64,000 nt of DNA, from assembly GCA_964612335.1 (NCBI GenBank), contig CAZTDU010000014.1, positions 288 to 64,287 of the forward strand. The letters run 5' to 3'. Both the position numbers and the translations under genes were made by a program. The notes under the pieces were generated by a model. The model searched no databases. It was not told the origin of the DNA and saw only the letters and a list, made by a program, of their open reading frames with translations. This document shows, one piece after another, positions 12,130 through 39,052 of the stretch. The DNA is from an uncultured Enterobacteriaceae bacterium (lineage in GTDB: Bacteria > Pseudomonadota > Gammaproteobacteria > Burkholderiales > SG8-39). The first letter of the stretch is position 1, and every line of letters starts with the position of its first letter.

Positions 12130-12969
12130 ATGGGTGCGGTGCTGTCGGCGGGTGTCGGCCTGAAGCCGGAGCATTTCGCCGCTGCGCTGGCGACGAACGC
12201 CCGCGGCCTGTGGTTCGAGGTGCATGCCGAGAACTACATGGTCGAGGGCGGGCCCCGCCTGCGCTGGCTGGACGCGATCAGGACCCGGCATCCGGTGTCC
12301 GTTCACGGTGTCGGCCTGTCGCTCGCCGCCGATGCCGACCTGGACGCGGCGCACCTTCGCCGCGTTGCTGCCCTCGTGCAGCGCGTCAAGCCGGCGCTCG
12401 TGTCGGAGCACCTCGCCTGGTCGGCCTGGCGCGGCGCCTGTTACCCGGACCTGCTGCCGTTTCCGCGCACCTCGCAATCCCTGGCGCGCGTGGCTGCGAA
12501 CGTCGAGCAACTCCAGGACGCGATCGGCTGCAGCGTCGCGGTGGAGAACCCGTCGCATTACCTGCGCATCGATGCGCATGAGTGGGACGAGATCGACTTC
12601 CTGTCCGAGCTTGCGCGTCGTACCGGATGTGCGCTGCTGCTGGACGTCAACAACGTGTACGTCAGTGCCCGCAACCTGCGGGCGTCGGCGCGGGCCTACA
12701 TCGACGCTTTTCCCGCCGAGCTGGTGGCGGAAATCCACCTGGCCGGGCACAGCGAGGACCCCGCACTGGGCGAGGACCTGCTGGTGGATTCTCACGATGC
12801 CGCGGTGGCGCCCGCGGTCTGGGCGCTCTACGAGCGCCTGGTGGCGCGCATCGGCCCGCGTCCGACCCTGATCGAGCGCGACGGCAATGTCCCGGCGTTC
12901 GCGGATCTGATGGCGGAGCGCGAGCTTGCGCATGGCGTCCTGTGCACGCGGCACGCGAAGGCCGCATGA
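12130..12969 (+). CDS. DUF692 multinuclear non-heme iron oxidative enzyme (MNIO; BufB-type)
   Basis: FEVHAENY, VSEHLAW, ENP, LLLDVNNVYV, EIHLAGH, DSH, LIERD metal-ligand motifs. Confidence 0.93.
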   Translation: MGAVLSAGVGLKPEHFAAALATNARGLWFEVHAENYMVEGGPRLRWLDAIRTRHPVSVHGVGLSLAADADLDAAHLRRVAALVQRVKPALVSEHLAWSAWRGACYPDLLPFPRTSQSLARVAANVEQLQDAIGCSVAVENPSHYLRIDAHEWDEIDFLSELARRTGCALLLDVNNVYVSARNLRASARAYIDAFPAELVAEIHLAGHSEDPALGEDLLVDSHDAAVAPAVWALYERLVARIGPRPTLIERDGNVPAFADLMAERELAHGVLCTRHAKAA

Positions 12970-13751
12970 TGCGCGCGCTGGCGAGTTTCCAGGACGGGTT
13001 CGTGCGTGCCTTGCTGGACCCGGAGGCAGGCGTGGATGACGCCGTCGGCGCGCTTGCGGCGCAGCCGGCGTTCGCGGTCTACCGGAACACGGTAATCAAG
13101 GCTTGCATCGACGCGCTGCAGGCCAACTTCCCGGCGGTGGCGCGACTGGTGGGTGACGAGTGGTTCCGCTCCGCGGCTGCGGCGTACGCGCGCAGCCAGC
13201 CCCCGGCCGTGCCCATGATGAACGCGTACGGCAGCGGGTTCCCCGCCTTCCTCGAGCGCCATTTGCAGACCGACGAGCGCGCGTATCTCCCTGCGGTGGC
13301 GAGGCTGGATCTGCTGTGGACCGAATGCCACGGTGCCGCTGACGCGCCGCCGCTCGCGCAGGCCGCGCTCGCGCAACTGGAACCGCAGGCGCTCGGCGTG
13401 CTGCGCCTGCGGCCGCATCCGGCGACGCGCTGGGCGTGGTTCGCGGACGCGCCGGCGTACACGATCTGGTCCCTGAACCGCGGCGACCCTACGCCTGCGG
13501 CCGCCGCGCCGCAGATCGCCTGGCGCGGCGAGGGAGCCCTGTTTGCGCGGCCGCTGGACGCCGTGGTCTCGCGTGAGATCGGCGAACCGGTTTGCGCGTT
13601 CCTGGATGCGTGTGCCGCAGGCGCATCGCTTGACGACGCCGCGCAAGCCGCGCTTGCCGTCGACCCCGCGGCGGACCTCGGCGGGCTGATGGCGCGGCTG
13701 CTCGAATGCGGCGCCTTCGCCGCGCAAACAAGCAAGGAGGATCTCGCATGA
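12966..13751 (+). CDS. DUF2063 partner protein (BufC/HvfC-type)
   Basis: FAVYRNTV..LQANFPAVARLVGDEWF, YGxxFPAFL, VARLD motifs; ATGA overlap with DUF692. Confidence 0.88.
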   Translation: MMRALASFQDGFVRALLDPEAGVDDAVGALAAQPAFAVYRNTVIKACIDALQANFPAVARLVGDEWFRSAAAAYARSQPPAVPMMNAYGSGFPAFLERHLQTDERAYLPAVARLDLLWTECHGAADAPPLAQAALAQLEPQALGVLRLRPHPATRWAWFADAPAYTIWSLNRGDPTPAAAAPQIAWRGEGALFARPLDAVVSREIGEPVCAFLDACAAGASLDDAAQAALAVDPAADLGGLMARLLECGAFAAQTSKEDLA

Positions 13752-14221
13752 CGAATGCCAGTGACATGTCCGCCCCCCAGCCTGGCGGCTTGCGGGGAAT
13801 GCACAACCGGCTTGCCGACCTGCTTGGCGCCGCGACCGGGCACGCGCTCATCGCGCTGGCTGCGCGCTTCGGCGTTGGCGCGACCTTCTTCTATTCCGGC
13901 CGGACGAAGGTCGACGGTTTCTTTACCGTCAACGACAGCGCCTATTCGCTGTTCCGCGAGGAATACAAGGTCCCGCTGCTGCCGCCGGAGTTCGCGGCGC
14001 ACATGGCCACCTATGCGGAACACCTTCTGCCCGTGCTGCTGTTCGCCGGGCTGCTCACCCGGCTATCGGCGCTCGGGCTGCTCGGCATGACCGCCGTCAT
14101 CCAGGTGTTCGTCTATCCGGACGCCTGGCCGACGCACCTGACGTGGGCGGTGGCGCTGCTCTACCTCGTGGGGCGCGGCGGCGGCCCCGTTTCGCTGGAC
14201 CGCTGGCTCGGCCTGCGCTGA
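13748..14221 (+). CDS. DoxX family membrane protein (BufD-type)
   Basis: FFYSGRTK, LLFAGLLTRLSA, VYPDAWPTH, GGGPVSLD. Confidence 0.9.
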   Translation: MTNASDMSAPQPGGLRGMHNRLADLLGAATGHALIALAARFGVGATFFYSGRTKVDGFFTVNDSAYSLFREEYKVPLLPPEFAAHMATYAEHLLPVLLFAGLLTRLSALGLLGMTAVIQVFVYPDAWPTHLTWAVALLYLVGRGGGPVSLDRWLGLR

Positions 14222-14238
14222 CGCGCGCGGACCAGGAA

Positions 14239-15012
14239 ATGGAGCGGCGGGTTGCCGGGCGGCTGGCCGACGCACTCGACGCCGTGCTTGCGCGCTGGTA
14301 CTCCGCGGACGGACGGAATTGCGACTACGCGGGGCTGGCGCGCTCGGCCGAGCACGCGGCGCTGCGGGAAGCGTCTGCGGCGCTCGATCCGCTGGACCCG
14401 CGCACCCTGGCGATTCCAGGGCCGCTCGCGTTCTGGATCAACGCCTACAACGCCGCCGCACTGCTTGGCGTGCTGGAAGCCGGCGCTCCCGAGAGCGTGC
14501 ACCGCATCGCCGACTACTTCTCCGCTCCTCGCCTGCGGGTCGCGGGCCACGCATACTCGCTCGACGACATCGAGCACGGCCTGCTGCGCGGCAACGCAGC
14601 ACCTTACGGCCGGCTGATGCCGCCGCTGGGTTCTGGCGACCCGCGACTCGCGTTTGCGCCGCGCCTGTGGGACGAGCGGGTGCATTTCGCCCTTCACTGC
14701 GCGAGCCGCTCGGCGCCGGCGCTGCGGGTGTTCCGCGCGGCAACGCTGTCCGCGCAGCTCGAGACGGCGGCATGCACCTGTGTCGAGGCAGAAGTGGAGG
14801 CGCGGCACGCCGAGGGCGATCTGCAGCTTCCCATGATCTTCAAGTGGTACCAGGGCGATTTCGGCGGCCGCCGGGGCGTCATCGCGTTCGTGGTGGCGCG
14901 GCTCGAGGACGCGGACGCCGTGGACTACATCGACAGCAGGGGCGATGCGCTGAAGCTTTCGTACCGCGCATACGACTGGACCTTGAACGCCCCGCCGCAC
15001 GCGCGTGCATGA
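14239..15012 (+). CDS. DUF547 domain-containing protein
   Basis: AFWINAYNA, SLDDIEHGLLR, RVHFALHCASRSAP, IFKWY..DF, YDWTLN. Confidence 0.88.
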   Translation: MERRVAGRLADALDAVLARWYSADGRNCDYAGLARSAEHAALREASAALDPLDPRTLAIPGPLAFWINAYNAAALLGVLEAGAPESVHRIADYFSAPRLRVAGHAYSLDDIEHGLLRGNAAPYGRLMPPLGSGDPRLAFAPRLWDERVHFALHCASRSAPALRVFRAATLSAQLETAACTCVEAEVEARHAEGDLQLPMIFKWYQGDFGGRRGVIAFVVARLEDADAVDYIDSRGDALKLSYRAYDWTLNAPPHARA

Positions 15013-15022
15013 GGAGATACCC

Positions 15023-15709
15023 GTGACACAACTACGCCTGAGCGGTATTCGTGCCTGCGTGTTCGATGCGTACGGCACTTTGTTCGACGTCAACAGCGCC
15101 GCAGCGCAAGCCAAGGACGCGCTCGGCGAGAAATGGCAGCCGCTCGCGGACCTTTGGCGGGTGAAGCAGCTGCAATACACCTGGCTGCGGGGATTGATGG
15201 GCAGGCACGCGGATTTCTGGCAAGTCACCGGCGACGCCCTCGATTACGCCATGGGGAGCCTGGGGTTCGACGATGCGCCGCTGCGCGAGCGCTTGATGGG
15301 CTTGTATCTCACGCTGAATGCCTATCCGGAAGTGAAGGACACCCTCAAGCAGCTGAAGGCGGGTGGCCTGAAACTCGCGATCCTCTCCAACGGCGCGCCG
15401 AACATGCTGGCGGCAGCGGTCGCGAACTCGGGCATCGCGGAGTTGCTGGACGCCGTGCTGTCGGTGGAGGAGGTCCAGGTGTTCAAGCCCCATCCATCGG
15501 TTTACGGTCTGGCGACTGATCGGCTCGCGCTGGAAAGGGAACGGATCTGCTTTCTGTCATCGAATGCCTGGGACGCGCACGCCGCGAAGGCGTTCGGTTC
15601 TCGCGTGATCTGGTGCAACCGCTTCGGCCAGGTGCCGGAGCGGATTCCCGAGCGGCCTGACGGCGAGATTGGCACACTGAGTGCGTTGCCCGCAATACTC
15701 GGAATATGA
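15023..15709 (+). CDS. Haloacid dehalogenase type II (L-2-haloacid dehalogenase-like)
   Basis: FDAYGTLFDV, WRxKQLQYTW, LSNG, FKPHP, SSNAWD motifs; GAGGAG RBS before GTG. Confidence 0.88.
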   Translation: MTQLRLSGIRACVFDAYGTLFDVNSAAAQAKDALGEKWQPLADLWRVKQLQYTWLRGLMGRHADFWQVTGDALDYAMGSLGFDDAPLRERLMGLYLTLNAYPEVKDTLKQLKAGGLKLAILSNGAPNMLAAAVANSGIAELLDAVLSVEEVQVFKPHPSVYGLATDRLALERERICFLSSNAWDAHAAKAFGSRVIWCNRFGQVPERIPERPDGEIGTLSALPAILGI

Positions 15710-15852
15710 CTCTCTCATTCGTTATTGGTCCGCTCGTACTTGCGATTGTAGGCGTGATCTTCGGCGCCGGCCTGATCGCATTTCGCCTGCACCGGGTCCG
15801 CGGCTCAGGAAAGGCTGATTTGAAGGTAACGAGAGACATTTGCGGCCAGTGA
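15706..15852 (+). CDS. Small single-pass membrane protein (48 aa), below the ORF-track cut-off
   Basis: MTLSFVIGPLVLAIVGVIFGAGLIAFRLHRVRGSGKADLKVTRDICGQ; ATGA overlap with the HAD stop. Confidence 0.45.
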   Translation: MTLSFVIGPLVLAIVGVIFGAGLIAFRLHRVRGSGKADLKVTRDICGQ

Positions 15853-15900
15853 AAGCTGCGTGGTCTCTGTCTGTCGGCAGCCGATCGGTTCGCGCTGTCG

Positions 15901-16296
15901 TCACCCCGTCAGCGTAGCGATGATCGGGCAGGCGACTTTGCCGCGGCGCACGTCGCAGCGCGCGACCAGTTCACTGAGAACGTCCCGCATTCGCGCCAGG
16001 TCCGCCAGACGCGCTTCCACCAGCGCGAGTTTCTCCGCGGCAAGCGATCGTGCCGTGCCGCAGCTTTGCGGGTCTTCAAGGGCCAACAGGCGCTGTATCT
16101 CGGCAAGCGAAAAGCCGAGCCGTTGCGCCCGTTTGACGAAGCGCAGGCGGGATACGAACTCAACCCCGTAGCGCCGCATGCCGCCGGCTGGTCTCGTCGG
16201 CTCCGCCAGAAGGCCCAGGCGCTGGTAGAAGCGGATGGCTTCCACGGTGACGCCGGCCGCTTCGGCGACACGGCCGATGGTCATGGTTGCGCTCAT
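15901..16296 (-). CDS. merR: Hg(II)-responsive MerR regulator
   Basis: [23 protein letters not shown]; three Hg-binding Cys ([16 protein letters not shown]); divergent from merT; start could be 16308 or 16284. Confidence 0.9.
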
Positions 16297-16334
16297 GGCA
16301 CGACTCATCCTTGAAAAGGAAAGGAACAGTAAGC

Positions 16335-16366
16335 TTGACTCCGTACATGACTACGGACCTTAGAGT
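16335..16366 (+). promoter_or_regulatory. mer operator/promoter 1 (merTPA)
   Basis: TTGACT-CCGTACATGACTACGGACCT-TAGAGT: near-Tn21/Tn501 dyad with a 20-bp spacer. Confidence 0.9.
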
Positions 16367-16396
16367 ACACCCGGTCGGATTGCTTGCGGAGACGAT

Positions 16397-16804
16397 ATGG
16401 ACGTGGTCAGGACGCACTCGACTGTCAAGCTGGACGTGCCCGCCACGGCAGGTTCAGACAGGGTCAGCAAGGCAACGCTTGCGGGCGGGCTGATCGCGGC
16501 GATCATCGCTTCGGCGTGCTGTCTCGGGCCGTTGGTACTCGTCATGGTGGGGGTCAGTGGAGCCTGGATCTCGAACCTTACGCTGCTTGAGCCGTACCGT
16601 CCGGTGTCTATCGGGGTCGCGCTGGTTTTCATGGGGCTGGCATGGCGCCGTATCTACCGCGCGCCCGCAGCCGCATCATGCGATCCCGGAACACTGTGCG
16701 CGCTGCCGCAGACCAATCGCGCCTACCGGCTCATATTCTGGGTGGTGTCAGCGCTGGTGCTGCTTGCCGTTGGATTCCCGTACCTCGCGCCGCTTTTTTA
16801 CTAG
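16397..16804 (+). CDS. merT: Mercuric ion transport protein MerT
   Basis: ASACCLGPLVL, WISNLTLLEPYRP, CDPGTLC cytoplasmic Cys pair. Confidence 0.93.
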   Translation: MDVVRTHSTVKLDVPATAGSDRVSKATLAGGLIAAIIASACCLGPLVLVMVGVSGAWISNLTLLEPYRPVSIGVALVFMGLAWRRIYRAPAAASCDPGTLCALPQTNRAYRLIFWVVSALVLLAVGFPYLAPLFY

Positions 16805-16814
16805 GAGATAGCTG

Positions 16815-18612
<1,798 letters not shown>

Positions 18613-18644
18613 TCGTGCGCCGGCGTCCTGCCATAGCCCCGGAC

Positions 18645-18676
18645 TTGACTCCGTACCATAGTACGGAGCAAAGACT
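18645..18676 (+). promoter_or_regulatory. mer-type operator/promoter 2
   Basis: TTGACT-CCGTACCATAGTACGGAGCA-AAGACT; perfect dyad TCCGTAC-N4-GTACGGA. Confidence 0.85.
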
Positions 18677-18692
18677 TGTCGCCCAGCCCGAT

Positions 18693-19382
18693 ATGTCTCT
18701 CGGTACCGCTCAGAAGCACCTCACCATTGGCGAACTGGCCCAGCGGGCCGACGTCGGTGTCGAGACGATCCGCTTCTACGAGCGCAAGGGCCTGATCGCG
18801 CAGCCGGTGCGTCCCGCGGCAGGCTTTCGGGCCTACCCGCAGGACGTCCTTGAGCGACTGGGGTTCGTGCATGAAGCGAAGCAGCTTGGCTTCACTTTGA
18901 AGGAGATCCGCGATCTGCTGAGGTTGCGCGACAGCCCTGAAGCGGACGCCGCCGCCGTGCGCGGCCGCGCCGCCGCGAAGCTTGCGCAGATCGAGGACCG
19001 GATCATCCGGTTACAGCGCATGCGCGTTACTTTGCAGAATCTGCTTTCCCAATGCCCCGGTAGCGGTGAGTTGAGCAATTGTTCCATCGTCAAGGCACTG
19101 TCCGTCTCGACTACGCAGCCGGACGGGGGCCGCGCACATGGCACAAAGAAGGAATTTCCAATGAAAACCATCGATCTGATGATCCAGGGCATGCACTGCG
19201 ACGGTTGTGCCAAGACCATAGAGGCGCTGCTAACGACGGAGCTGGGCGTCAAAGCCGCCACCGTTTCTTACGGCAGCGGCAGCGGCAGCGCCAGGGTCCT
19301 GTTCGACCCGGCAAGCATCGATATCCCACGCCTTGTCAAAGCGGTGGAGCGCGCAGGCTATCGAGTAACCGGGCCGCGCTAG
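18693..19382 (+). CDS. MerR-family regulator fused to C-terminal HMA (CopZ-like) domain
   Basis: TIGELA..VETIRFYERKGL HTH, QCPGSGELSNC loop, then MKTIDLMIQGMHCDGC HMA from 19161. Confidence 0.85.
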   Translation: MSLGTAQKHLTIGELAQRADVGVETIRFYERKGLIAQPVRPAAGFRAYPQDVLERLGFVHEAKQLGFTLKEIRDLLRLRDSPEADAAAVRGRAAAKLAQIEDRIIRLQRMRVTLQNLLSQCPGSGELSNCSIVKALSVSTTQPDGGRAHGTKKEFPMKTIDLMIQGMHCDGCAKTIEALLTTELGVKAATVSYGSGSGSARVLFDPASIDIPRLVKAVERAGYRVTGPR

Positions 19383-20053
19383 TGCCTGGCGGCGATATCG
19401 CGGCGTTGGTCCTGTGGCCAATTGCGTTCGGCCTGCTGGGTTTTATCGAGCCCTGCGCGATCGGCAGTACGCTGCTGTTCATCAAGACCACCGAGGGACA
19501 GGCACCCGCGGTCAGGATCGGACAGGTCTTCGCGTTCACGCTCAGCCGCGCTCTTTTCATCGGCTTGCTGGGCGCGTCGGCGGCGTTCATCGGATCGATG
19601 TTTCTCGGTGTGCAGAAGGCGGTCTGGATACTGATGGGTGCCTTGTACGTCGCCATCGGTTTTCTTTACGTCACCGGGCGGATAGGATCGCTGATGGTAT
19701 CGATCGGTCCGCGCCTCGCATCCATTTCCAGCCCCCGCGGCTCGATCTTTCTTGGGGTAGCGTTCGGTCTCAACATCCCGGCCTGCGCGGGCCCGATCCT
19801 GCTCGCGCTGCTTGCCGCTTCCGCGGCGGGAGGCGCAAGCGGTGAGACCGTGGCGCGAGGGTTCATCTCGCTCGCGCTGTTTGGATTCGCCCTGTCGCTG
19901 CCGCTCGTGGCGGCGGTGCTGTTCGAACGCGCGCGCCGCACGCTCGACTGGCTCGCCGGTCTCACGCGGCGAATGCCCCTGTGGACCGGCGTGCTGTTCG
20001 TCTTGCTGGGTGCCTGGTCGATCTGGTTCGGCCTTTTTGTCTCCGTCAGGTAA
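19382..20053 (+). CDS. CcdA/DsbD-like transmembrane thiol-redox protein
   Basis: About 6 TM helices with IEPCAIG and IPACAGP Cys motifs; GTG overlaps the upstream TAG. Confidence 0.7.
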   Translation: MPGGDIAALVLWPIAFGLLGFIEPCAIGSTLLFIKTTEGQAPAVRIGQVFAFTLSRALFIGLLGASAAFIGSMFLGVQKAVWILMGALYVAIGFLYVTGRIGSLMVSIGPRLASISSPRGSIFLGVAFGLNIPACAGPILLALLAASAAGGASGETVARGFISLALFGFALSLPLVAAVLFERARRTLDWLAGLTRRMPLWTGVLFVLLGAWSIWFGLFVSVR

Positions 20054-20078
20054 CCGTCGGGCGCGCGCTAGACAGAGC

Positions 20079-20110
20079 TTGACACCGGGCCAAGGTACGG
20101 CGCCTACGCT
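20079..20110 (+). promoter_or_regulatory. mer-type operator/promoter 3 (upstream of P1B ATPase)
   Basis: TTGACA-CCGGGCCAAGGTACGGCGCC-TACGCT; right half-site GTACGG intact, left half degenerate. Confidence 0.7.
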
Positions 20111-20146
20111 GAAGTCCGGAATTGTCCCTTTGACCGGAGATCGACC

Positions 20147-22585
20147 ATGACTGCCGATTTCGACCTCGCCGTTCCACTATGGACCCATGAACCGGCAAGT
20201 CGCCCGGATCGCGCCCGCATCCGCGCCCGTATCGCCGGAATGCATTGCTCGCTGTGCACGGGGACCATCGAGAAGGCGCTTGGCCGTCACGAAGGCGTGG
20301 ACGCGGTCACCGTGAACCTGACCCATGAACAGGCGCTGGTCGAGTACGACCCGCGCAGAGTGCAGCCGCAAGCGCTGCTCTCAACCCTGCGCCAGATGGG
20401 TTACTCAATTTCCGACCCGCGCAAGCTGAAGCCGTTCGAAGAGGAGGAGCGTCAACTGGTGCAAGAGGGTCGCCGCTTTCTCTGGGCCACCGTTTTCAGT
20501 CTGGGTTCGCTGACGCTCATCGCGCGCCCCGGGGATTTCTGGTACGCCGTGCTGGAGGCCTTCGTGGCCCTGGGCCTGCTCGCGCTCGTCTTTCTGGTGT
20601 TGCGCGCCCAGGGGTTGTGGAACGCCGTGGCTGGAACGTCAGGCGCGCTGGCGCTGGTAGTGGGCCTTTCCTGGCTCAAACAGGCGGGGACGCTGGAGGG
20701 CTGGGATGCGTGGATAGCCGCAGTGTTGGCCGTCTCAGTAGTGTTTTTCCTGGCGCGCCACATTCTTGCGATCGCGTGGCAGTCCCTGCGGCGCGGCATC
20801 ATCAACCAGCATGTGCTCCTCGAAGCCGCGGCCTTCGCGGGGCTGGCCGGCGGCGTCTACGGCCTTTCGGCGGGCGGACCGGACTTTCCCACGGCACCGT
20901 TCTTCTGCGTGGCTGTGATGGTCTGCAACTATCACATCTTTTCGGAATGGCTGTCCCTGATCGTCAAAACGCGCAGTTCGCAGGCGGTGCGGCGGCTCCT
21001 GGCGTTGCAGCCGGAGACCGCTTGCGTGCTGCGCGATGGACGCGAAACGGAGCGCCGCATCGAGGACGTTGCCGTGGGCGACCTGGTACGCATTCGGCCG
21101 GGCGAACGCATTCCCGTGGACGGCTCGGTCGCCGAAGGCCATTCGGCCGTGGATCAATCACTGGTCACCGGTGAGCCGTTGCCGGTTGAACGCGTCGCGG
21201 GCGACGACGTCATCGGGGGATCGATGAACGGGCTGGGCACGCTTCTGGTACGGGTGACGGCGGTCGGGGAGTCGAGCTTTCTGCACCGTGTGGTGCGCGA
21301 AGTCGAGGATGCGCGCGCCCTGAAACCCGGCATGCTGCATCTCGTCGATCGGGTGTTGAAGGTATATGCGCCCGCGGTGCTCACGCTGGCGCTGCTTGCC
21401 ATGCTGGGCTGGCTGATTCTGCCAATGCTTGCCGGCACTGATTCCGATATGGAGCGGGCGGTGTTCGCGGGGTTGACGGTACTGGTGATGGGTTATCCGT
21501 GCGCCCTCGGCATCTCCGCGCCATTGTCCATCGTTCGCGGCGCTGGAGAAGCGGCGGAGCGCGGGATACTGATGCGCACGGGCGAAGCCTTCCAGGGTTT
21601 CCGACTGGCCACCCATGTGGTTTTTGACAAGACCGGCACGCTCACCGAGGGCAAGCCCAGACTGCGCGAACTCGAAGCGGTCAGCGGAACGGAGTCCGAT
21701 TTGCTCGGATTGGCCGCGGCGGCGGAGTCCGCGTCGGAACACCCCTTGGCCAAGGCGGTGATGAATGCTGCCCTGGAGCAGGGCGTCACACTGCCTGAGC
21801 TTGAGAATTTTGAAGCGGTCCCCGGACGCGGCGTACGAACCACATCGGCAGGAAGCGAAATCCTGGTCGGTAACCCTCGCTTCCTCGAGGAAAATGGCGT
21901 TTCGTTCGATCCATTGCGCGTCCGTACCGAAACTCTCGAGAAAGCGGGACGCACGGTGGTCATGGTTGCGCGCGCGAAGCGCGTACTGGGTCTGCTCGCT
22001 TTCGGGGACGCGCTCCGCCCGGGAGCGGCGGGTACCGTGTCAGCGTTGCGCCGTGCAGGTGTGCGCACAGTGTTGATGAGCGGCGACAATGCCGCGGCCT
22101 CCCGGAGGATCGCCGCTGAGGCGGGTATAGACGACGTCCACGGCGGGCTTTTGCCGCAGGACAAGGCGGCGTTGATCCGTACCTTGCAAAGCAACGGCAA
22201 CGTCGCCATGGTCGGTGACGGAATCAACGACGCTCCGGCGCTGATGCAGGCCAACGTGGGCATCGCGATGGGCGGCGGCACCGATATCGCCATCGATTCG
22301 GCGGACATCATCATTTTGAACAACCGCCTGGAAGCGTTGCTCGATGCCCGCGAGATCAGCCGCTGGAGCTACCGCAAGATGGTGCAGAACGTGTGCCTCG
22401 CGGTGACGTTCAATGGAATCGGTGTGCCGCTCGCCGCAACGGGGCTGGTCTATCCGATCTGGGCGATGGCGGCGATGGCCATCAGCGTGACGGCAATCTT
22501 CATCAATTCGCTGCGTGGCCGGCCATGGCTGTTTTTCGACGCGGTGTTGAGCGTCGGGCGCGTACCCGGGCCCGGGGTCGCCTGA
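20147..22585 (+). CDS. Heavy-metal-translocating P1B-type ATPase with non-canonical YPC motif
   Basis: GMHCSLC HMA, TGEP, GYPCALG, DKTGTLT, SEHP, GDGINDAP. Confidence 0.92.
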   Translation: MTADFDLAVPLWTHEPASRPDRARIRARIAGMHCSLCTGTIEKALGRHEGVDAVTVNLTHEQALVEYDPRRVQPQALLSTLRQMGYSISDPRKLKPFEEEERQLVQEGRRFLWATVFSLGSLTLIARPGDFWYAVLEAFVALGLLALVFLVLRAQGLWNAVAGTSGALALVVGLSWLKQAGTLEGWDAWIAAVLAVSVVFFLARHILAIAWQSLRRGIINQHVLLEAAAFAGLAGGVYGLSAGGPDFPTAPFFCVAVMVCNYHIFSEWLSLIVKTRSSQAVRRLLALQPETACVLRDGRETERRIEDVAVGDLVRIRPGERIPVDGSVAEGHSAVDQSLVTGEPLPVERVAGDDVIGGSMNGLGTLLVRVTAVGESSFLHRVVREVEDARALKPGMLHLVDRVLKVYAPAVLTLALLAMLGWLILPMLAGTDSDMERAVFAGLTVLVMGYPCALGISAPLSIVRGAGEAAERGILMRTGEAFQGFRLATHVVFDKTGTLTEGKPRLRELEAVSGTESDLLGLAAAAESASEHPLAKAVMNAALEQGVTLPELENFEAVPGRGVRTTSAGSEILVGNPRFLEENGVSFDPLRVRTETLEKAGRTVVMVARAKRVLGLLAFGDALRPGAAGTVSALRRAGVRTVLMSGDNAAASRRIAAEAGIDDVHGGLLPQDKAALIRTLQSNGNVAMVGDGINDAPALMQANVGIAMGGGTDIAIDSADIIILNNRLEALLDAREISRWSYRKMVQNVCLAVTFNGIGVPLAATGLVYPIWAMAAMAISVTAIFINSLRGRPWLFFDAVLSVGRVPGPGVA

Positions 22586-22750
22586 AACGGCGAATGGCCG
22601 GCCCGTCGAAGATGCGCTTGACGCATGGCCGCCGCGCCGCGTGGAGACCCGGTGTGGGCGGAGAGCTGACTTCGTCTGATTGACGCGGTTGAACACCGTC
22701 GTTGTAAGGATTTCCATGAATCCATGGTCCTGTGCTGAGGAGGAATCACC

Positions 22751-23722
22751 ATGAGTCTGGCTGTACCCGTTCCGGGGCGAATCGCAGCAAGCGCCATCGG
22801 CCTGGCGTTGATGTTCGTCGCGACCGCGGTTCTCGCAGAGCCGATCCGCAACGGCTTCGACCTGGCCGGCGCATTGGTTCCGGCCGAGGAGATCCTGCAG
22901 GGTGGACCGCCGAAGGACGGCATCCCCGCTATCGACAAGCCCGAGTTCGTCGCGGCGGGCAAGGCCCGTGGCCTGCGCGGCAAGGACATGGTGCTCGGCA
23001 TCGCGCGCAACGGCATCGCCAAGGCCTACCCGATCCTGATTCTGAATTGGCATGAAGTGGTGAACGATCGGTTCGGCGCGGAGCCGATCGTGGTGACCTT
23101 CTGCCCGCTGTGCGGGTCGGGCGTTGCGTTCGAGGCGACCGCCGGCGGGCGCGCGCTACAGTTCGGCGTATCGGGGCTGCTGTACAACAGCGACGTGCTC
23201 CTGTACGACCGCGCGACGAGTTCGCTCTGGTCGCAGATCCGCGCGCAGGCGGTCACCGGCCCGTTGAAGGGCGCGCGCCTGGTCCAGGTGCCGATGCTGC
23301 ATATGACCTGGGACGACTGGCGCCGGCGGCATCCGCAGACGCTGGTGTTGAGCGAGCGCACCGGATTCGGGCGCGACTACAGCCGCGATCCCTACGACGG
23401 CTACGACAAGACCGAGGCGCTGATGTTTCCCGCGCGTTTCCGTGCCGAGGGATTCCATCCGAAGGAGCGCGTGCTCGGCGTCCTCGTCGGCGGCAAGGCG
23501 AAAGCGTATCCATTCTCGGAACTCGCCCGGGCGGCGGGCCCCGTTTCGGACATCGTCGGCGGCCAGCGCGTGATCGTCCGCTTCCTGCCGCAAGGGCCGG
23601 CCGCCGAGGCGCAGGACGCGAGCGGCCGCACGCTGGCGACGACGACCCTGTTCTGGTTCGCCTGGGCGGCATTCCATCCCGGGACGGAAATCTTCCGCGC
23701 GCAGAAGCCCACGCCGCGCTGA
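22751..23722 (+). CDS. DUF3179 domain secreted protein (CxxC)
   Basis: Signal peptide; GGPPKDGIPAID, HEVVND, FCPLCGSG, SGLLYNSD..YDRATSSLWSQ. Confidence 0.85.
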   Translation: MSLAVPVPGRIAASAIGLALMFVATAVLAEPIRNGFDLAGALVPAEEILQGGPPKDGIPAIDKPEFVAAGKARGLRGKDMVLGIARNGIAKAYPILILNWHEVVNDRFGAEPIVVTFCPLCGSGVAFEATAGGRALQFGVSGLLYNSDVLLYDRATSSLWSQIRAQAVTGPLKGARLVQVPMLHMTWDDWRRRHPQTLVLSERTGFGRDYSRDPYDGYDKTEALMFPARFRAEGFHPKERVLGVLVGGKAKAYPFSELARAAGPVSDIVGGQRVIVRFLPQGPAAEAQDASGRTLATTTLFWFAWAAFHPGTEIFRAQKPTPR

Positions 23723-23737
23723 GTCCGGCACCTCGGA

Positions 23738-23887
23738 GTGCGGGACCGCCATCGAGCGGATGACATCGTCCAGGAAGCATCGTTGCGCGAACATCGCCCG
23801 CATTGCGCGTCATGCGCACAGGCCCTGCGGGAGTAGCAAGAACTGGAGGCCGGTCTGAGGCGCGCATTCGAGGTGACGATCCCGGCG
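23738..23887 (+). pseudogene. Relic of an ECF sigma factor / zinc anti-sigma pair collapsed by deletion
   Basis: One frame reads VRDRHRADDIVQEASLR (sigma region 2-like) then EHRPHCASCAQALRE*QELEAGLRRAFEVTIPA (HxxxCxxC anti-sigma-like, premature TAG). Confidence 0.55.
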
Positions 23888-35042: not shown

Positions 35043-35264
35043 ATGAGCGCAGCCCTGAAGAGCCTTGGAATCGAGCGCCTCAGCGTTGACGAGAGAATTG
35101 CGCTCGTTGAAGAAATATGGGACAGCATCGCCGAGGTGACACCCCTTACCGAGGCACAGCGCCGGGAACTGGATCGGCGGCTGGAGGATCACGAAGCGAA
35201 CCCGGATGACGTAGTGCCCTGGGAGGCCGTCAAGGCGGCCATCGAAGCGCGCCTGAAGAGATGA
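35043..35264 (+). CDS. Addiction module antitoxin (TIGR02574-like)
   Basis: LSVDERIALVEEIWDSI...QRRELDRRL...VVPWEAVK; ATGA overlap with toxin. Confidence 0.88.
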   Translation: MSAALKSLGIERLSVDERIALVEEIWDSIAEVTPLTEAQRRELDRRLEDHEANPDDVVPWEAVKAAIEARLKR

Positions 35265-35476
35265 CGCTCAAGGTCGTCTTTCGGCCAGCTGCCCGGGCCG
35301 AATTCGACGGCGCTTCTCTCTGGTACGAAGACCGGCAACCCGGTCTGGGAATTCAGTTCGTGGCGGAGATCGACCGTGTAATCGATCTCGCGTCCAGGTA
35401 CCCCGACCGGTACCCGGTCAAGCATAAAGAGATCCGCTGCATTCCGGCGCGTCGCTTTCCCTATTCGATGTTCTAC
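35261..35476 (+). pseudogene. RelE/ParE family toxin, C-terminally truncated, no stop codon
   Basis: VVFRPAARAEF..WYE..GLG..F..RRFPYSMFY, then unrelated sequence; the usual last beta-strand and basic tail are missing. Confidence 0.65.
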
Positions 35477-35608
35477 ACGCGCTCGATTCGCGCGGGCGCG
35501 CCGAACCGGCTGAATGCGGGGAGAATCCGAATCCCGCAAGCCTCTGCTTCAGGCCGGTACGGAAACGGGGGCAGTTGCGCGATGCGCCTTCAGACCCGGA
35601 GCTTGTCC

Positions 35609-36490
35609 ATGAGCACCAGACCGATCGTCATATGCGCGTTCCTGGTGATGGCCTTCGGGCTTGCCGTTCAGGATGCGCACTCCCAGCAACGGCCAAAGCT
35701 GAACTGGGAAACGATCTGGATCCCGGCGAACGAGCGCGGCGTCCAGGATCCGGTCCGGGACATCAAGCTCGAAGCGAACATCGTCAAGCCGGACGGCAAG
35801 GGTCCTTTCCCGGTCGCCATCATCAGTCATGGCTCGACCGGGCGGGGTCGCGTCCCGGTCAGCCAGACGCTGCGGTCGGATTTCGTCGCAAGCGAGTTCC
35901 TCAAGCACGGCTTCGCGGTCGTCGCGCCGATGCGCAGCGGCCGCGGACAATCGGGCGGCGCGTACGACGAGCCCTACGACTGCGATGGCGCCGCGGCTGC
36001 CGGCGGCTTGCAGAACGCGATGCGGGATACCGACCACGTGGTGGCGTACGTGAGGACGCGGCCCGAGTTCGACATCTCGCGCCTGGTGCTGTCCGGAAAC
36101 TCGCGCGGCGGCATCCTCTCGGTGCTGTATGCGTCGCAGCGGCCGGGCGTGGCGCGCGGTGTGGTCAACTTTGTCGGCGTCTGGACGAACGACACCTGCT
36201 CGAACCGGGCCGGAGGATTCAACGAGAAGGTCTTCAGGGACGCCGGAACCGCTTCGGCAGCCGCGCACGTTCCCATGCTCTTCCTCTACGCGGGGAACGA
36301 CAGCCACTACGCGCCGGACTCGGCGAGGAACTTCGCCGCGCTTGTCCAGCAATCCGGAGGAAGCGTGCAGTTGCAGCTGTACGGCGCGGTCGGCAGCGAC
36401 GGCCACCGGCTGTTCGCGCATCCGGACGTCTGGGGGCCGGATTTCCATGGTTTCCTCGACAAGCTCGGGTTTCCCCGAGTCAGGGAGTGA
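35609..36490 (+). CDS. Secreted dienelactone hydrolase / peptidase S9-like alpha/beta hydrolase
   Basis: Signal peptide, GPFPVAIISHG, SGNSRGG, LYAGND, GH; GGAG RBS. Confidence 0.75.
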   Translation: MSTRPIVICAFLVMAFGLAVQDAHSQQRPKLNWETIWIPANERGVQDPVRDIKLEANIVKPDGKGPFPVAIISHGSTGRGRVPVSQTLRSDFVASEFLKHGFAVVAPMRSGRGQSGGAYDEPYDCDGAAAAGGLQNAMRDTDHVVAYVRTRPEFDISRLVLSGNSRGGILSVLYASQRPGVARGVVNFVGVWTNDTCSNRAGGFNEKVFRDAGTASAAAHVPMLFLYAGNDSHYAPDSARNFAALVQQSGGSVQLQLYGAVGSDGHRLFAHPDVWGPDFHGFLDKLGFPRVRE

Positions 36491-36610
36491 TGGCGCACCC
36501 GGCAGGCCGGAAGCGAAGGTCCGTGCCCGGCCGCGTGCGCAGGCTTGCGCGCAAGGAGTCGCACATGGCCACGACAATCGCGATCGATCCGGCGCTTCGG
36601 CGCGGCACCG

Positions 36611-36910
36611 ATGGCATCCACTGATCCCGCGACGCCCGAGCCGCGCGCCGAGGCATCGCGCGGCAGGGAGATCCTGGTCGACGCCGCGCAGCGCGAACGC
36701 GAGCGCAGCGCGCTGCGAAAAATCCGCGACAAGCTGAACGCGATCGGCAAGGAGGAGGACGAACTGCGCCGGCACCGGCGCATCGCCCTGTGGATCGCCG
36801 TCGCGCTGCTCATCGTGGCAGCAGCGCTGCTGGCGAACCTGCTGGTCAAGCCGAAGGAACTGTCCGGCCCGCCAATCCAGATCCCCGCGCCCGCGCCGCA
36901 AGCGAAGTGA
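36611..36910 (+). CDS. Hypothetical coiled-coil protein with C-terminal TM helix
   Basis: Charged helix followed by IALWIAVALLIVAAALLANLLV. Confidence 0.55.
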   Translation: MASTDPATPEPRAEASRGREILVDAAQRERERSALRKIRDKLNAIGKEEDELRRHRRIALWIAVALLIVAAALLANLLVKPKELSGPPIQIPAPAPQAK

Positions 36911-37069
36911 AACCCGGCGGCGCGGGTTCGCCGCCTTGCACTAGCGTCATGGCGGGATTGGCAAGCGGTTCGCGCGATGCTGTTATCGAAGTGTTTCCCC
37001 GGCCGGTGTGAGCTAACGCACCGCGCGGGATGGAAGAACCGCGGTCGCGAGGGCAGAATAGGGGCGGTG

Positions 37070-37117
37070 TTAGTTGACAGATCTGTCAACTAATTTGTCA
37101 ACCAATACACGTTAGGC
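37070..37117 (+). other. attI-like integron site: 24-bp perfect palindrome, extra TGTCAAC repeat and GTTAGGC core
   Basis: TTAGTTGACAGATCTGTCAACTAA (37070-37093), TGTCAAC again at 37096, GTTAGGC at 37111. Confidence 0.5.
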
Positions 37118-37693
37118 TGCACAACAGTGACCGCCGAGATTGTTATCGCCGCTATCGGCGTCATCGTTTCCGTTTTGGTGTACGTCGCTGGGGTGAAGAG
37201 AGGCGAGCGGCAAGAGCGTCTTCGGCAGGAGCATGAACGGAGATTGCAGGACACCCGGCAAGCTCATGAGCGCCAGCTAGAGGGTGACCGTCAAGAGCAT
37301 GAGCGGCAGTTGGAGCATGAAAGGCAGCAGCAACAGCTGGCTTCAAAAGTTGCCGATGAATACGTTGATATGGTTCGCCGACGCTATGACTCAGGAATAT
37401 CGGCAATGTCCCGCCTTAACCTAGCCTCGCTAGGCTCGGATGGGTTAATACGTAGAGCAATAGAGGAAATGGGAGCTAGGACCGGAAGAGATCCATGGGG
37501 TGCTTTCGCACCGCAGGTGCAAGACCTAGACCTCATGGCGTTCTTTTCGTATGTACGGGACCGACGCGTCAAATTCTCAGAGACGCCGCTCGAGAATGTC
37601 ATTGAAAAGGTTCGTCGCGCTGGAGGTGTGCGTACTGCCTAACCGCGCGTTCGAAGGGGCGCGCATGAAGCTGCGCGCCCTTCAACGCGGACG
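37111..37693 (+). mobile_element. Integron gene cassette
   Basis: Starts at GTTAGGC core; single promoterless ORF; ends in an attC whose R'' (GCCTAAC) is the exact complement of the 5' core. Confidence 0.85.
37127..37642 (+). CDS. Cassette-borne hypothetical protein with N-terminal TM helix and 11-aa repeats
   Basis: Low-GC ORF; RQEHERRLQDT/RQAHERQLEGD/RQEHERQLEHE repeats; TAA stop inside attC R''. Confidence 0.8.
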   Translation: MTAEIVIAAIGVIVSVLVYVAGVKRGERQERLRQEHERRLQDTRQAHERQLEGDRQEHERQLEHERQQQQLASKVADEYVDMVRRRYDSGISAMSRLNLASLGSDGLIRRAIEEMGARTGRDPWGAFAPQVQDLDLMAFFSYVRDRRVKFSETPLENVIEKVRRAGGVRTA

Positions 37694-37699
37694 TTGAAC
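37637..37699 (+). mobile_element. attC recombination site (63 bp)
   Basis: R'' GCCTAAC, 5-nt spacer, L'' GTTCGAAG (extra base), central stem, L' CTTCAAC, 6-nt spacer, R' GTTGAAC. Confidence 0.88.
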
Positions 37700-37744
37700 C
37701 GAGAAGTTCGGGTCGGCGTACAATTTGCCGCCTGAGGATCCGCC

Positions 37745-37945
37745 ATGAGCGAAGTCGAGCAGATCGAGGCCCGCATCAGGAAACTGTCGCCTGAGGAACT
37801 GGCGAGGCTGCGGGCATGGTTCGCGGAGTTCGACGCGAAGGCCTGGGACCGGCAGATCGAAGCGGACTCCAAGGCAGGAAAACTCGATCAACTCATCGAG
37901 AAGTCCAAGGCGGAGCACAAGGCGGGGAAGAGCACCCCGCTTTGA
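37745..37945 (+). CDS. Putative type II antitoxin
   Basis: 66-aa helical protein (LSPEELARLRAWFAEFD..WDRQIEAD..AGKLD) overlapping the toxin start. Confidence 0.75.
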   Translation: MSEVEQIEARIRKLSPEELARLRAWFAEFDAKAWDRQIEADSKAGKLDQLIEKSKAEHKAGKSTPL

Positions 37946-38196
37946 AGCACTGGGCCTCCGCAGGCTTCTGGGCCTGCTACGACGCCCTGCCTGCCAGGGT
38001 ACGCGCTACCGCGGACAAGAACTTCGAGTTGCTGAAAACCGACCCGAGACATCCGTCGCTTCACTTCAAGCGGGTCGGAACCGTCTGGTCCGCTCGCGTG
38101 GGTGAGGGCTATCGGGCACTCGCGCACGACGTCGAGGGCGGCATCAAGTGGTTCTGGATCGGCTCGCATGCGGAGTACGACAAGTTGATTGGCTAA
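37942..38196 (+). CDS. ParE/RelE-like toxin
   Basis: TTG start; FWACYDALP..ADKNFELLK.DPRHPSLHFK...WFWIGSHAEYD. Confidence 0.8.
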   Translation: MKHWASAGFWACYDALPARVRATADKNFELLKTDPRHPSLHFKRVGTVWSARVGEGYRALAHDVEGGIKWFWIGSHAEYDKLIG

Positions 38197-38246
38197 GCAC
38201 CCGCCACCGCCGGGAGGCATGACGGGACGTCAAGAAAGAGGAATGG

Positions 38247-39023
38247 ATGGATCTGGGCCTGAAAGGCAAGTTCGCCCTCGTCACCGGGGGCAGCATGGGA
38301 ATCGGCAAGGCGGCGGCGCTGGCGCTGGCGGCGGAAGGCTGCCGCATCGCCATCGGCGCGCGCGGCAGGGAGGCGCTCGACGCCGCCGCGGCGGAAATCG
38401 GCGGCGGCACGCTGGCGGTGCAGGTGGACTGCACCAAACCCGCCGACATCCGCCGCATGGTGGACGAAGTCGTCGCGCGCTTCGGCCGCATCGACGTGCT
38501 GGTCAACAGCGTCGGCTCGGCCAAGTCCGGCAACTTCCTCGAGCTCGCCGACGAGGACTGGCGCTCGAGCCTCGACCTCAAGCTCTACGGCATCGTGCAC
38601 ACCTGCCGCGAGGTCGTGCCGCACATGCGGCGCCAGCGCTGGGGGCGCATCGTCAACGTCATCGGCCATCGCGGCCGCCAGCCCGAGACGCAGGCCATGC
38701 CCGCGGGCGTGGCCAATGCCGGCCTGATCAACTTCACCAAGGCGCTCGGCGACGAGGTGGTGCGCGACGGCATCCTCGTCAACGGCGTCAGCCCCTGCCC
38801 GATGGAGACGCGGCGCCTGGACTACATGGTGCAGGCCAAGGCCGCGATGATGGGCATCTCGGAAGAGGCGGCGCGCGACGAATTCCTGCACGACATCCCG
38901 ATCGGCCGCTTCGCGCGGCCCGAGGAGATCGCGCCGCTGATCGCCTTCCTCGCGTCCGAGCGGAACAGCTACATCAGCGGTACCACCATCGCCATCGACG
39001 GCGGCGCCACGCGCACCGCCTGA
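38247..39023 (+). CDS. SDR family oxidoreductase
   Basis: TGGSMGIG, DVLVNS, VNGVSP, GRFARPEEIA; catalytic Tyr not obvious. Confidence 0.88.
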   Translation: MDLGLKGKFALVTGGSMGIGKAAALALAAEGCRIAIGARGREALDAAAAEIGGGTLAVQVDCTKPADIRRMVDEVVARFGRIDVLVNSVGSAKSGNFLELADEDWRSSLDLKLYGIVHTCREVVPHMRRQRWGRIVNVIGHRGRQPETQAMPAGVANAGLINFTKALGDEVVRDGILVNGVSPCPMETRRLDYMVQAKAAMMGISEEAARDEFLHDIPIGRFARPEEIAPLIAFLASERNSYISGTTIAIDGGATRTA

Positions 39024-39052
39024 CGGGCGCACGCCGCCGCGGAGAGGATCCC

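Follow-up and report, generated by a model that had tools for sequence, protein, structure and literature searches.

We analysed a mercury resistance (mer) locus and the genes adjoining it in a 64,000-nucleotide stretch of DNA from an uncultured bacterium placed in lineage SG8-39 of the Burkholderiales (assembly GCA_964612335.1, contig CAZTDU010000014.1, positions 288 to 64,287 of the forward strand). This whole stretch is called the window, and coordinates refer to it unless another contig is named. A canonical Hg(II) reduction operon, merR/merTPA, occupies 15901–18612 and is followed by three genes encoding a MerR-type regulator fused to an HMA domain (MerR-HMA), a CcdA-like membrane protein and a P1B-type ATPase of the 'YPC' clade, here called the cassette. 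A first-pass annotation, made from the sequence alone, had joined these genes and a DUF3179 gene further downstream into one metal-response system served by three mer-type promoters. The features of the operon and the cassette are as follows.

15901–16308, − strand: merR, canonical Hg(II) regulator, 135 aa; Pfam MerR/MerR-DNA-bind; NCBIfam TIGR02051, 151.0 bits against a cutoff of 150.85
16335–16366, + strand: promoter/operator 1, divergent merR/merTPA; TTGACT, dyad TCCGTAC-ATGA-CTACGGA, −10 TAGAGT at 20 bp; 1 mismatch
16397–16804, + strand: merT, Cys-Cys in the first transmembrane helix (TM1), CDPGTLC loop; Pfam MerT, 148 bits; NCBIfam MerT equivalog, 164.9 against a cutoff of 150
16815–17111, + strand: merP, signal peptide, GMNCSAC; TIGR02052 MerP, 114 bits against a cutoff of 92.55
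17113–18612, + strand: merA, mercuric reductase core, CVNVGC, C-terminal LSCCAG; TIGR02053, 562.8 bits against 454.45; PRK13748, 783 bits
18645–18676, + strand: promoter/operator 2; TTGACT, perfect dyad TCCGTAC-CATA-GTACGGA, −10 AAGACT at 20 bp; 0 mismatches
18693–19382, + strand: MerR-HMA fusion regulator, 229 aa; MerR helix-turn-helix, dimerisation helix, C-X8-C loop, C-terminal HMA (GMHCDGC)
19382–20053, + strand: CcdA-like polytopic membrane protein, 223 aa; GTG start overlaps the TAG stop of the regulator gene
20079–20110, + strand: promoter/operator 3; TTGACA, degenerate left half-site ACCGGGC, CAAG, right half-site GTACGGC, −10 TACGCT at 20 bp
20147–22585, + strand: P1B-type ATPase, 'YPC' clade, 812 aa; N-terminal HMA (GMHCSLC), DKTGT, HP, GDGIND; VLVMGYPCALG

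Conservation and probable mer-type control of the cassette

Loci were surveyed with one genome per GTDB species and scored with the proteins of the window, which gave 80 loci from Beta- and Alphaproteobacteria and a few other phyla, several of them in cultured isolates; the cassette itself is present in Alpha-, Beta- and Gammaproteobacteria. A MerR-type regulator lies directly 5′ of the CcdA-like gene in 49 of the 69 loci with enough flanking sequence, and a related ATPase follows the CcdA-like gene on the same strand in 46 of 61. Where at least 8 kb is available on each side of the CcdA-like gene (fully flanked loci, n = 37), regulator and ATPase are both present in 28. Three contigs from metagenome-assembled genomes (MAGs) hold the CcdA-like gene between MerR-HMA (5′) and an HMA-ATPase (3′), the stop/start overlap between the regulator and CcdA-like genes recurs in loci L002 and L006, and the cassette is carried on plasmids of Thalassobaculum, Leisingera and Marinobacter. 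Among its cultured carriers are Marinobacter salarius SMR5, Thalassospira profundimaris WP0211, Leisingera aquaemixtae and Acidiphilium iwatense. L008, from a second lineage (86–88% nucleotide identity), has the same merR-merTPA-merR-HMA-CcdA-like-ATPase block as the window. Judged by gene content and order, the MerR-HMA/CcdA-like/P1B-ATPase block is a real, recurrent and conserved three-gene module, as the first-pass annotation had supposed. Its genes are currently annotated as 'MerR family', as 'cytochrome c biogenesis protein CcdA' or 'hypothetical', and as 'heavy metal/cation-translocating P-type ATPase'. Searches of the open-access literature (mer with CcdA and P-type ATPase, YPC P1B, MerR-HMA fusion, mercury efflux, DUF3179) returned no description of the cassette, which is apparently undescribed and extends the known MerR-family/P1B efflux regulons and extended mer operons.

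The proteobacterial MerR signal is TCCGTAC-N4-GTACGGA, lying within an over-long −35/−10 spacer (PMC1526738). We searched the whole window for the operator pattern TTGACTCCGTACNNNNGTACGGA with up to 3 mismatches, using shuffled sequences as the chance control. Only two matches were found in 64 kb, at 16335 (1 mismatch) and at 18645 (0 mismatches, starting 33 bp past the merA stop), where shuffles predict 0.00, and the mer-type promoters proposed for these two positions are thus borne out. The third proposed site, at 20079 (TTGACACCGGGCCAAGGTACGGC), departs from the pattern at 4 positions, of which only one lies outside the left half-site; judged without its orthologues it would be weak or doubtful. 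All three sites share one geometry, in which the dyad begins at the last base of the −35 element and a 20-bp spacer leads to a TAnnnT-like hexamer. When the intergenic region holding site 3 was aligned from 11 loci, ranging from a sister strain to Alphaproteobacteria and the Marinobacter plasmid, CTTGAC, the right half-site GTACGG and the A and T of the −10 element were all invariant, and distant loci had a complete dyad, CCGTAC-N4-GTACGG, at this position. The common geometry and the clean orthologous operators uphold site 3 as a degenerate copy of the mer-type promoter.

Operators were then counted across loci (up to 3 mismatches of 19) against random 170-bp segments of the same loci. An operator was found 5′ of the regulator gene in 34 of 54 orthologous loci and within the gap between the CcdA-like and ATPase genes in 23 of 55, with a background of 0.8% in both cases. 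A generic sigma-70/terminator scan detected no promoters at these sites because the promoter spacers are over-long. From operator matches and their conservation, mer-type regulation of the cassette appears well supported, as does the proposal that the second and third transcription units, predicted from sequence, are driven by mer-type operators. Since both cassette promoters carry the proteobacterial mer operator, either MerR paralogue should control them; the paralogues are predicted to repress both promoters when metal is absent and to activate them by DNA distortion once metal is bound. The three-Cys MerR of the window is predicted to recognise the same operator and could drive all three promoters.

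The linkage to mercury genes was assessed by calling merA near a cassette where a homologue of at least 45% identity occurred within 8–10 kb. Such a gene is present in 15 of the 37 fully flanked loci (~41%) and in 23 of the 80 loci overall; each of these 23 merA products has LSCCAG at its C-terminus as well as the active-site CxxxxC. The CcdA-like gene also ends mer operons that have no ATPase, in the order merT-merP-merA-CcdA-like (L051, L083) or merF-merA-CcdA-like (L063); it follows merR, divergent from merTP, in L013, and merP in L044, where a DUF3179 gene adjoins merR. On plasmid pSMR5 of Marinobacter salarius a 225-aa MerR-HMA, divergent from merTPA, is the only regulator adjoining merTPA, and further mer operators lie 5′ of the CcdA-like and ATPase genes 5–6 kb away; by the standards of comparative genomics, the mer and cassette genes of pSMR5 form one regulon. 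From these gene neighbourhoods the linkage between cassette and mer appears strong, not obligatory, with 41% far above chance. The first-pass annotation would have been contradicted by blocks usually unlinked from mer genes, and on this the result is mixed, with a merA partner in ~41% of fully flanked loci and none within 8–10 kb in ~59%. The cassette is autonomous in slightly over half of loci and mer-linked in the others.

The mer operon of the window resembles the Tn501/Tn21 type in its divergent merR, in the 7-4-7 operator within an over-long promoter spacer, which the cassette promoters reuse, and in MerT, MerP and MerA proteins that keep every catalytic and transport cysteine. The merR product clears the MerR equivalog cutoff narrowly (151.0 versus 150.85) and, in alignment, has all three metal-binding cysteines (Cys82, Cys117 and Cys126 equivalents; PQSC...C-X8-C). 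In contrast to Tn501/Tn21-type operons, the window has no merD, merE, merC or merB, its MerA is without nearly all of the NmerA domain, and a MerR-HMA paralogue, a CcdA-like protein and a P1B ATPase are added under mer-type operators. The match of merA to PRK13748 spans profile positions 86–560 only, and NmerA (HMA) is cut down to a remnant, MTCENCAPH (17113–17230), that resembles a GMTCxxC loop; a GMxCxxC N-terminus is likewise missing in 15 of the 23 merA genes near cassettes. It may be asked whether, with NmerA lost from MerA, the HMA on the regulator serves in its stead.

A second comparison is with the CueR-CopA, ZntR-ZntA, CadR-CadA, PbrR-PbrA and GolS-GolT regulons. Like these, the cassette joins one MerR-family activator to one HMA-bearing P1B pump, and its promoters have the 19–20-bp spacer that contains the regulator dyad (PMC1526738 and general background). 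In contrast, the cassette operator is a Hg-type dyad, its regulator has an additional HMA domain and is read in the same direction as its targets, which would make it autoactivating rather than divergent, and the CcdA-like gene is an integral, translationally coupled member. The pump differs as well, having YPC/FN/M-x-x-M-A-x-S-V in place of CPC/YN/MxxSS, together with His222 and Tyr262-His263.

The three cassette proteins

The best NCBIfam model for MerR-HMA is MerR (125.3 bits), followed by ZntR (112.8) and CueR (109.5). In an alignment of 52 orthologues, most have three MerR-type cysteines (ADC, then C-X8-C), as in L004, L014, L017, L032, L052 and L088. The Cys82-equivalent is Ala in the clade of the window (window, L002, L006, L007, L008), so that the protein of the window keeps only the C-X8-C pair, and it is Ser in the pSMR5 regulator. 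In Tn501 MerR, Cys82 is needed for trigonal Hg(II) binding. The HMA domain is missing from some orthologues. We infer from the majority cysteine pattern that the family is ancestrally of the Hg(II) type; the metal specificity of the two-Cys variants is uncertain. At the nucleotide level, the start of mature MerP (16892–16928) and the start of the regulator HMA (19163–19199) are 78% identical over 37 nt (KTIDLMIQGMHC), a likeness that hints at recruitment of the regulator HMA from a MerP/NmerA-like sequence.

Metagenomes hold over 1,600 close homologues of the CcdA-like protein. The protein gave no Pfam or NCBIfam match even at E = 10, including DsbD_TM (PF02683) and DsbD_2 (PF13386), and a precomputed match to DsbD_2 or a related model exists for only 2 of 120 close homologues. 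Two membrane-embedded motifs, E23-P24-C25 and P133-A134-C135-x-x-P138, lie in pseudo-symmetric helices and are invariant in the family (35 sequences). Searched against the PDB, the family profile gave a single match, to Thermus CcdA (5vkv), over the full length at E = 0.0046, in which the Cys motifs align to SPC and TPCxGP of 5vkv with an inserted Ala in the second. An AlphaFold (AF2) model is all-helical (pLDDT 83), and the best Foldseek hit by both probability (0.89) and TM-score (0.43) is again 5vkv (E = 0.24), no match being significant. The two proteins are alike in length (223 versus 232 aa), in their all-helical membrane build and in having two Pro-Cys motifs in equivalent helices. Compared with CcdA, DsbD and ScsB, the protein of the window has E-P-C and P-A-C instead of S/N-P-C and P-C, and it is without an adjacent thioredoxin-fold partner and often co-occurs with a canonical CcdA. 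By profile match and by both Pro-Cys motifs, then, the membrane protein appears to belong, as a divergent branch, to the CcdA superfamily, and the label 'CcdA-like' given in the first-pass annotation is apt in the sense of a distant relative.

An exhaustive profile search of 1.84 billion representatives recovered only 583 CcdA-like clusters at 50% identity, a count that marks the proteins as a small family apart from mainstream CcdA. A canonical CcdA, recognised by Pfam DsbD_TM, also occurs in ~17 of the 80 loci, so the CcdA-like protein may do something other than standard electron transfer. With MerC, MerF, MerE and MerH it shares being a small Cys-bearing inner-membrane protein that is distal in some mer operons; unlike them it has at least 6 helices, not 2–4, mostly partners an ATPase rather than merA, and shows no sequence kinship to them. 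Mycobacterium marinum MerH was considered as a CcdA-like precedent and rejected, the pMM23 gene being MerC-like (Pfam MerC) and its product matching the protein of the window at E = 0.41 in BLASTP. In L010 (325–2387) the CcdA-like gene (82% identical) is directly followed by one for a flavoprotein disulfide reductase, 27% identical to MerA, which may be a different redox partner.

The ATPase has an intact P-type core (TGE, DKTGT, HP, GDGxND) with HMA, E1-E2 and Hydrolase domains (TIGR01525, 547 bits). Its transmembrane motifs are M448-G-Y-P-C452, F755-N756-G and W-A-M774-x-A-M777-A-x-S780-V-T, and H222 and Y262-H263 are also conserved in cassette ATPases. Across 46 cassette ATPases there is no variation in GYPC, FNG and M-x-x-M-A-x-S-V-T, and these motifs are present in every cassette-linked ATPase with a readable motif region. 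These proteins are 45–99% identical and fall into two subclades, the second of which (clade B) has a C-terminal HMA; bystander CopA genes in the same loci encode CPC, YN and MALSS. The closest PDB chains are CopA and ATP7B, and its nearest relatives of solved structure all pump Cu(I). The P1B-1 Cu(I) signature, CPC/YN/MxxSS, is not matched (GYPC, FN, MAISV), and the score against the CopA equivalog is 450, compared with a cutoff of 1316. Based on motifs and scores, the YPC ATPases appear to be a separate clade of CopA-like P1B ATPases. Between the HMA and the CopA helix-MA region, the ATPase of the window appears to have two extra hydrophobic helices at residues ~101–142 (window 20447–20575), and the alignment to Legionella pneumophila CopA begins at residue 156.

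Two relatives outside the cassette bear on the pump clade. CopAL6, a metagenomic copA-like YPC ATPase, did not complement an Escherichia coli copA mutant, in which copper resistance was lower and copper accumulation higher (PMC11082258). It resembles the cassette ATPases in the YPC of its metal-binding transmembrane helix and, with an HMA at both termini, those of clade B in particular; it was tested with copper only, and the comparison is by motif description rather than by full sequence. With kinship resting on the YPC motif, its phenotype argues, by analogy, against a plain copper exporter. The other relative, a YPC ATPase with 59% identity, is encoded on a plasmid of Burkholderia thailandensis next to a Tn21-type mer operon; its unit also holds thioredoxin, canonical CcdA, two small HMA proteins and a MerR-family regulator of different build. 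Because the operator there is not of the mer type and the regulator is differently built, the pump clade appears not to be tied to mer regulation everywhere, and by the same comparison the pairing of pump with a CcdA-type protein appears more general than mer-type regulation.

Gene order varies in the subclade with the C-terminal-HMA YPC ATPase. A gene of ~500 aa lies between the CcdA-like and ATPase genes in loci such as L039, L045, L057, L058 and L087; in L087 (7673–9196, the Leisingera plasmid) its product is a secreted protein of 507 aa, without a Pfam match and without a cysteine in its mature region. A canonical CcdA gene is often found 3′ of the ATPase in this subclade.

DUF3179 and the surroundings of the locus

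Two further features lie 3′ of the ATPase gene.

22625–22699, no strand: junction of a strain-specific deletion, from blastn of L007 against the window and the open reading frames (ORFs) of L007 and L008
22751–23722, + strand: DUF3179 periplasmic protein, signal peptide, FCPLCG; Pfam DUF3179 (PF11376), 301.1 bits against a cutoff of 27

Sister contig L007 starts at window position 14393 and is collinear with, and 97% identical to, the window over 14393–22625. At the junction it holds ~2.2 kb (8225–10413 of L007) with a solute-symporter-like gene on the minus strand after the ATPase; its DUF3179 gene lies 2.3 kb past the ATPase and is followed by its own pair of extracytoplasmic function (ECF) sigma and anti-sigma genes. 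That pair belongs to a second segment of ~1.2 kb (11436–12639 of L007; window 23722–23884) which the window is without. In L008 (87%) the ATPase gene is likewise followed by this symporter gene in the opposite orientation, and the contig has no DUF3179. By this comparison, the 165-bp gap between the ATPase and DUF3179 genes is a deletion junction and their adjacency is strain-specific, DUF3179 standing beside the pump because of the deletion in the window. No mer operator was found in the gap at up to 3 mismatches. Past 24234 the window and L007 wholly diverge, with an FAD monooxygenase gene in the former and GGDEF-EAL in the latter.

Among the 80 closest DUF3179 orthologue loci in metagenomes, only 2 hold mer or cassette genes, the commonest genuine neighbour being an ECF sigma factor (19/80); canonical CcdA and thioredoxin occur nearby in ~5. 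Counted from the cassette side, 7 of 80 loci have a DUF3179 gene no more than 10 kb away, an association that is above chance and minor; in the MAG of L002 the gene is ~25 kb away from the cassette, and three DUF3179 genomic contexts that we inspected showed no related genes. The AlphaFold model (pLDDT 84.5) is mostly beta with CPLC at a beta-hairpin. It gave no significant full-length match in the PDB, its fold is not thioredoxin-like, and the best partial matches are NirD/Rieske-type small domains (probability 0.8–0.9 over ~80–120 columns). CPLC is invariant in the family and is probably functional, because selenocysteine (UxxC) forms have been reported (PMC9312934). From gene order and fold we judge DUF3179 to be an unrelated neighbour rather than a member of the regulon. 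The earlier proposal that it is part of the system, or the target of the CcdA-like protein, is therefore not supported: a symporter gene intervenes in L007 and follows the pump in L008, only 2 of 80 loci show the association, no mer promoter precedes the gene, and the fold is not that of a thioredoxin.

G+C content is 63–64% over 16–22 kb, compared with ~69% on both sides. A search for direct and inverted repeats over 14.5–24.5 kb, aimed at transposon ends, returned only the operator repeats and short matches at chance level, and megablast of the whole block against plasmids found no near-identical plasmid copy. Sequencing runs that hold the window sequence are exclusively DNA metagenomes (landfill, activated sludge), with no RNA runs among them. 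An island inserted between the HAD and DUF3179 genes was considered and rejected: in L171 a HAD gene directly precedes DUF3179, much as one precedes merR in the window, but the HAD proteins are only 23% identical, compared with 72% for the DUF3179 pair, and are not orthologues. The genes 5′ of merR (12582–15709) encode DUF2063, DoxX, DUF547 and a HAD hydrolase; near the cassette, L002 and L004 likewise have genes for DUF547 and for NrsF-type anti-sigma proteins, maybe as a loose stress/metal-response neighbourhood association. A second local dip in G+C (63.3%) at 36000–38000 holds no Pfam-annotated ORF of 200 aa or more and is flanked by genes for an alpha/beta hydrolase (35261–36490) and a bPH_2-domain protein (38189–39463).

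Function of the cassette and its significance

The reading that we prefer, at roughly even odds (about 0.5), is that the cassette is induced by Hg(II) and works beside merTPA, the ATPase exporting Hg(II) or another thiophilic metal and the CcdA-like protein acting as a thiol relay. The locus is read as two joined modules under one regulatory logic. The merR/merTPA module imports Hg(II) and reduces it to Hg(0), and MerR or MerR-HMA with bound Hg(II) would switch on promoters 2 and 3. The ATPase would then send cytoplasmic Hg(II), or a similar thiophilic metal, out to the periplasm. The CcdA-like protein would carry reducing equivalents or thiol chemistry across the membrane and might thereby keep periplasm-facing cysteines (of MerP, MerT, MerF and periplasmic thiols in general) functional under soft-metal stress. 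What the analysis shows is the identity of the genes, the operator sites, the conservation of the cassette, its mer linkage, the YPC signature and the distant kinship to CcdA; the inducing metal, the substrate and direction of the pump and the electron-relay role are inferred.

Several observations weigh against this account. Export of Hg(II) alongside import by MerT and MerP looks futile, and ~59% of fully flanked loci have no merA nearby. L002 and L004, both MAG loci, carry the cassette next to cusCBA/cusF. MerR-HMA falls below the MerR equivalog cutoff (125.3 versus 150.85), and in the window, its relatives and pSMR5 the missing Cys82-equivalent leaves a two-Cys site like that of monovalent-metal sensors. 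The match of the membrane protein to CcdA is weak (profile E = 0.0046, TM-score 0.43, no Pfam match), canonical CcdA already exists in ~17 of 80 loci, and the cassette encodes no thioredoxin-fold periplasmic partner. Finally, the promoter dyad of the B. thailandensis YPC ATPase is not of the mer type.

A less likely rival reading is that the CcdA-like protein is a new type of thiol-based Hg(II) carrier built on the alternating-access scaffold of CcdA, and not an electron transporter. Its two membrane cysteines would bind Hg(II) on the periplasmic side and release it to cytoplasmic thiols, to MerA or to the HMA of the regulator, making it by analogy a functional counterpart of MerC, MerF, MerE and MerH. 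It does occupy the position of an accessory Hg transporter at the end of merTPA and merFA operons (L051, L083, L063), the coexisting canonical CcdA would not be redundant with it, and the start/stop overlap with the HMA-bearing regulator is conserved; the lack of a thioredoxin-like partner, P-A-C in place of the P-C of CcdA and the invariant Glu of the E-P-C motif at Cys25 point the same way. On the other side, each mer operon that holds the CcdA-like gene also has MerT/MerP or MerF, importing metal would be futile if the main partner, the P1B ATPase, exports it, above all in loci without merA, and the MerH precedent fell once MerH proved to be MerC-like; YPC ATPases paired elsewhere with canonical CcdA and thioredoxin point instead to redox support. 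We prefer the thiol relay because the main partner is an exporter-type pump, because YPC pumps also pair with canonical CcdA and thioredoxin, and because every mer operon with the CcdA-like gene has another transporter as well. Import by the CcdA-like protein, though doubtful, keeps substantial weight because of its mer-operon position, the coexistence with canonical CcdA, the missing thioredoxin-fold partner and the altered P-A-C.

An unlikely alternative is a Cu(I)/Ag(I)/Au(I) system, with a CueR-like two-Cys sensor that inherited a mer-like operator, a CcdA-type protein that shields periplasmic thiols from copper as DsbD and Scs do, and a mer linkage that reflects the clustering of genes in metal islands. 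DsbD-type proteins do contribute to copper tolerance, and the spacing of the CueR metal loop is C-X7-C. In the regulator of the window Ala stands in place of Cys82, the loop reads CPG...C, and the CueR and ZntR models score nearly as high as MerR (109–113 versus 125 bits); the nearest solved relatives of the pump are all Cu(I) pumps, and cassettes flank cusCBA/cusF (L002, L004) or, on the Thalassobaculum plasmid, adjoin genes for a multicopper oxidase, SCO, TlpA and copB. Set against this are the MerR-specific operator (TCCGTAC-N4-GTACGGA, not a CueR dyad), the three cysteines and C-X8-C loop of most regulator orthologues, a pump that has lost CPC, YN and MxxSS, the defining residues of Cu(I) sites, the CcdA-like genes inside mer operons, and pSMR5, where a regulator without Cys82 is the sole one adjoining merTPA; a merA linkage of 41% also far exceeds what island clustering predicts for an arbitrary gene. 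CopAL6 counts on both sides, as it altered cellular copper content and gave no copper resistance (PMC11082258). A copper-type cassette is thus a weaker reading than either the thiol relay or the importer, and it applies to the two-Cys regulator clade. Very improbable, by comparison, is the idea of one system where DUF3179 (or MerP) receives electrons from the CcdA-like protein and DUF3179 is co-transcribed from the third promoter. DUF3179 is periplasmic with a family-invariant CPLC, its selenocysteine forms suggest redox chemistry (PMC9312934), and it occurs near some cassettes (7/80, as in L044, where it lies beside merR and merP-CcdA-like) and near canonical CcdA and thioredoxin (~5/80). Against it stand the transporter gene between ATPase and DUF3179 in L007 and the transporter without DUF3179 in L008, the preference for ECF sigma factors (19/80) over mer or cassette genes (2/80), the ~25-kb distance in the MAG of L002, the gap of 165 bp that holds no mer operator, and a predicted fold that is in part NirD/Rieske-like and not thioredoxin-like.

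A bolder form of the Hg(II) export reading, speculative and rather improbable in our estimate, holds that YPC ATPases are dedicated Hg(II) efflux pumps, that the CcdA-derived Cys pair hands off or transports Hg(II), and that the HMA of the regulator is loaded with metal by the membrane machinery. Similarly conjectural is its structural corollary, that a site of a single Cys with Tyr, His and Met takes the place of CPC and so permits the release of Hg(II).

In textbooks, mercury resistance exemplifies detoxification through import and reduction, and to our knowledge no dedicated Hg(II) efflux pump has been established. If the bolder form were true, YPC pumps would be the first mercury exporters and would overturn the view that bacteria handle Hg(II) by uptake and reduction only. 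More generally, a pump cassette under a mer operator, in dozens of species and on plasmids and often joined to mer operons, would give the mer regulon a second arm and may add metal efflux to mercury reduction. The cassette would also define three unnamed families: the MerR-HMA regulators, a CcdA-derived two-Cys protein without a Pfam model, and the YPC-type P1B ATPases that annotation currently lumps with CopA. Such a second arm would bear on merA-based estimates of microbial mercury resistance in metagenomes and on the design of MerR-based biosensors.

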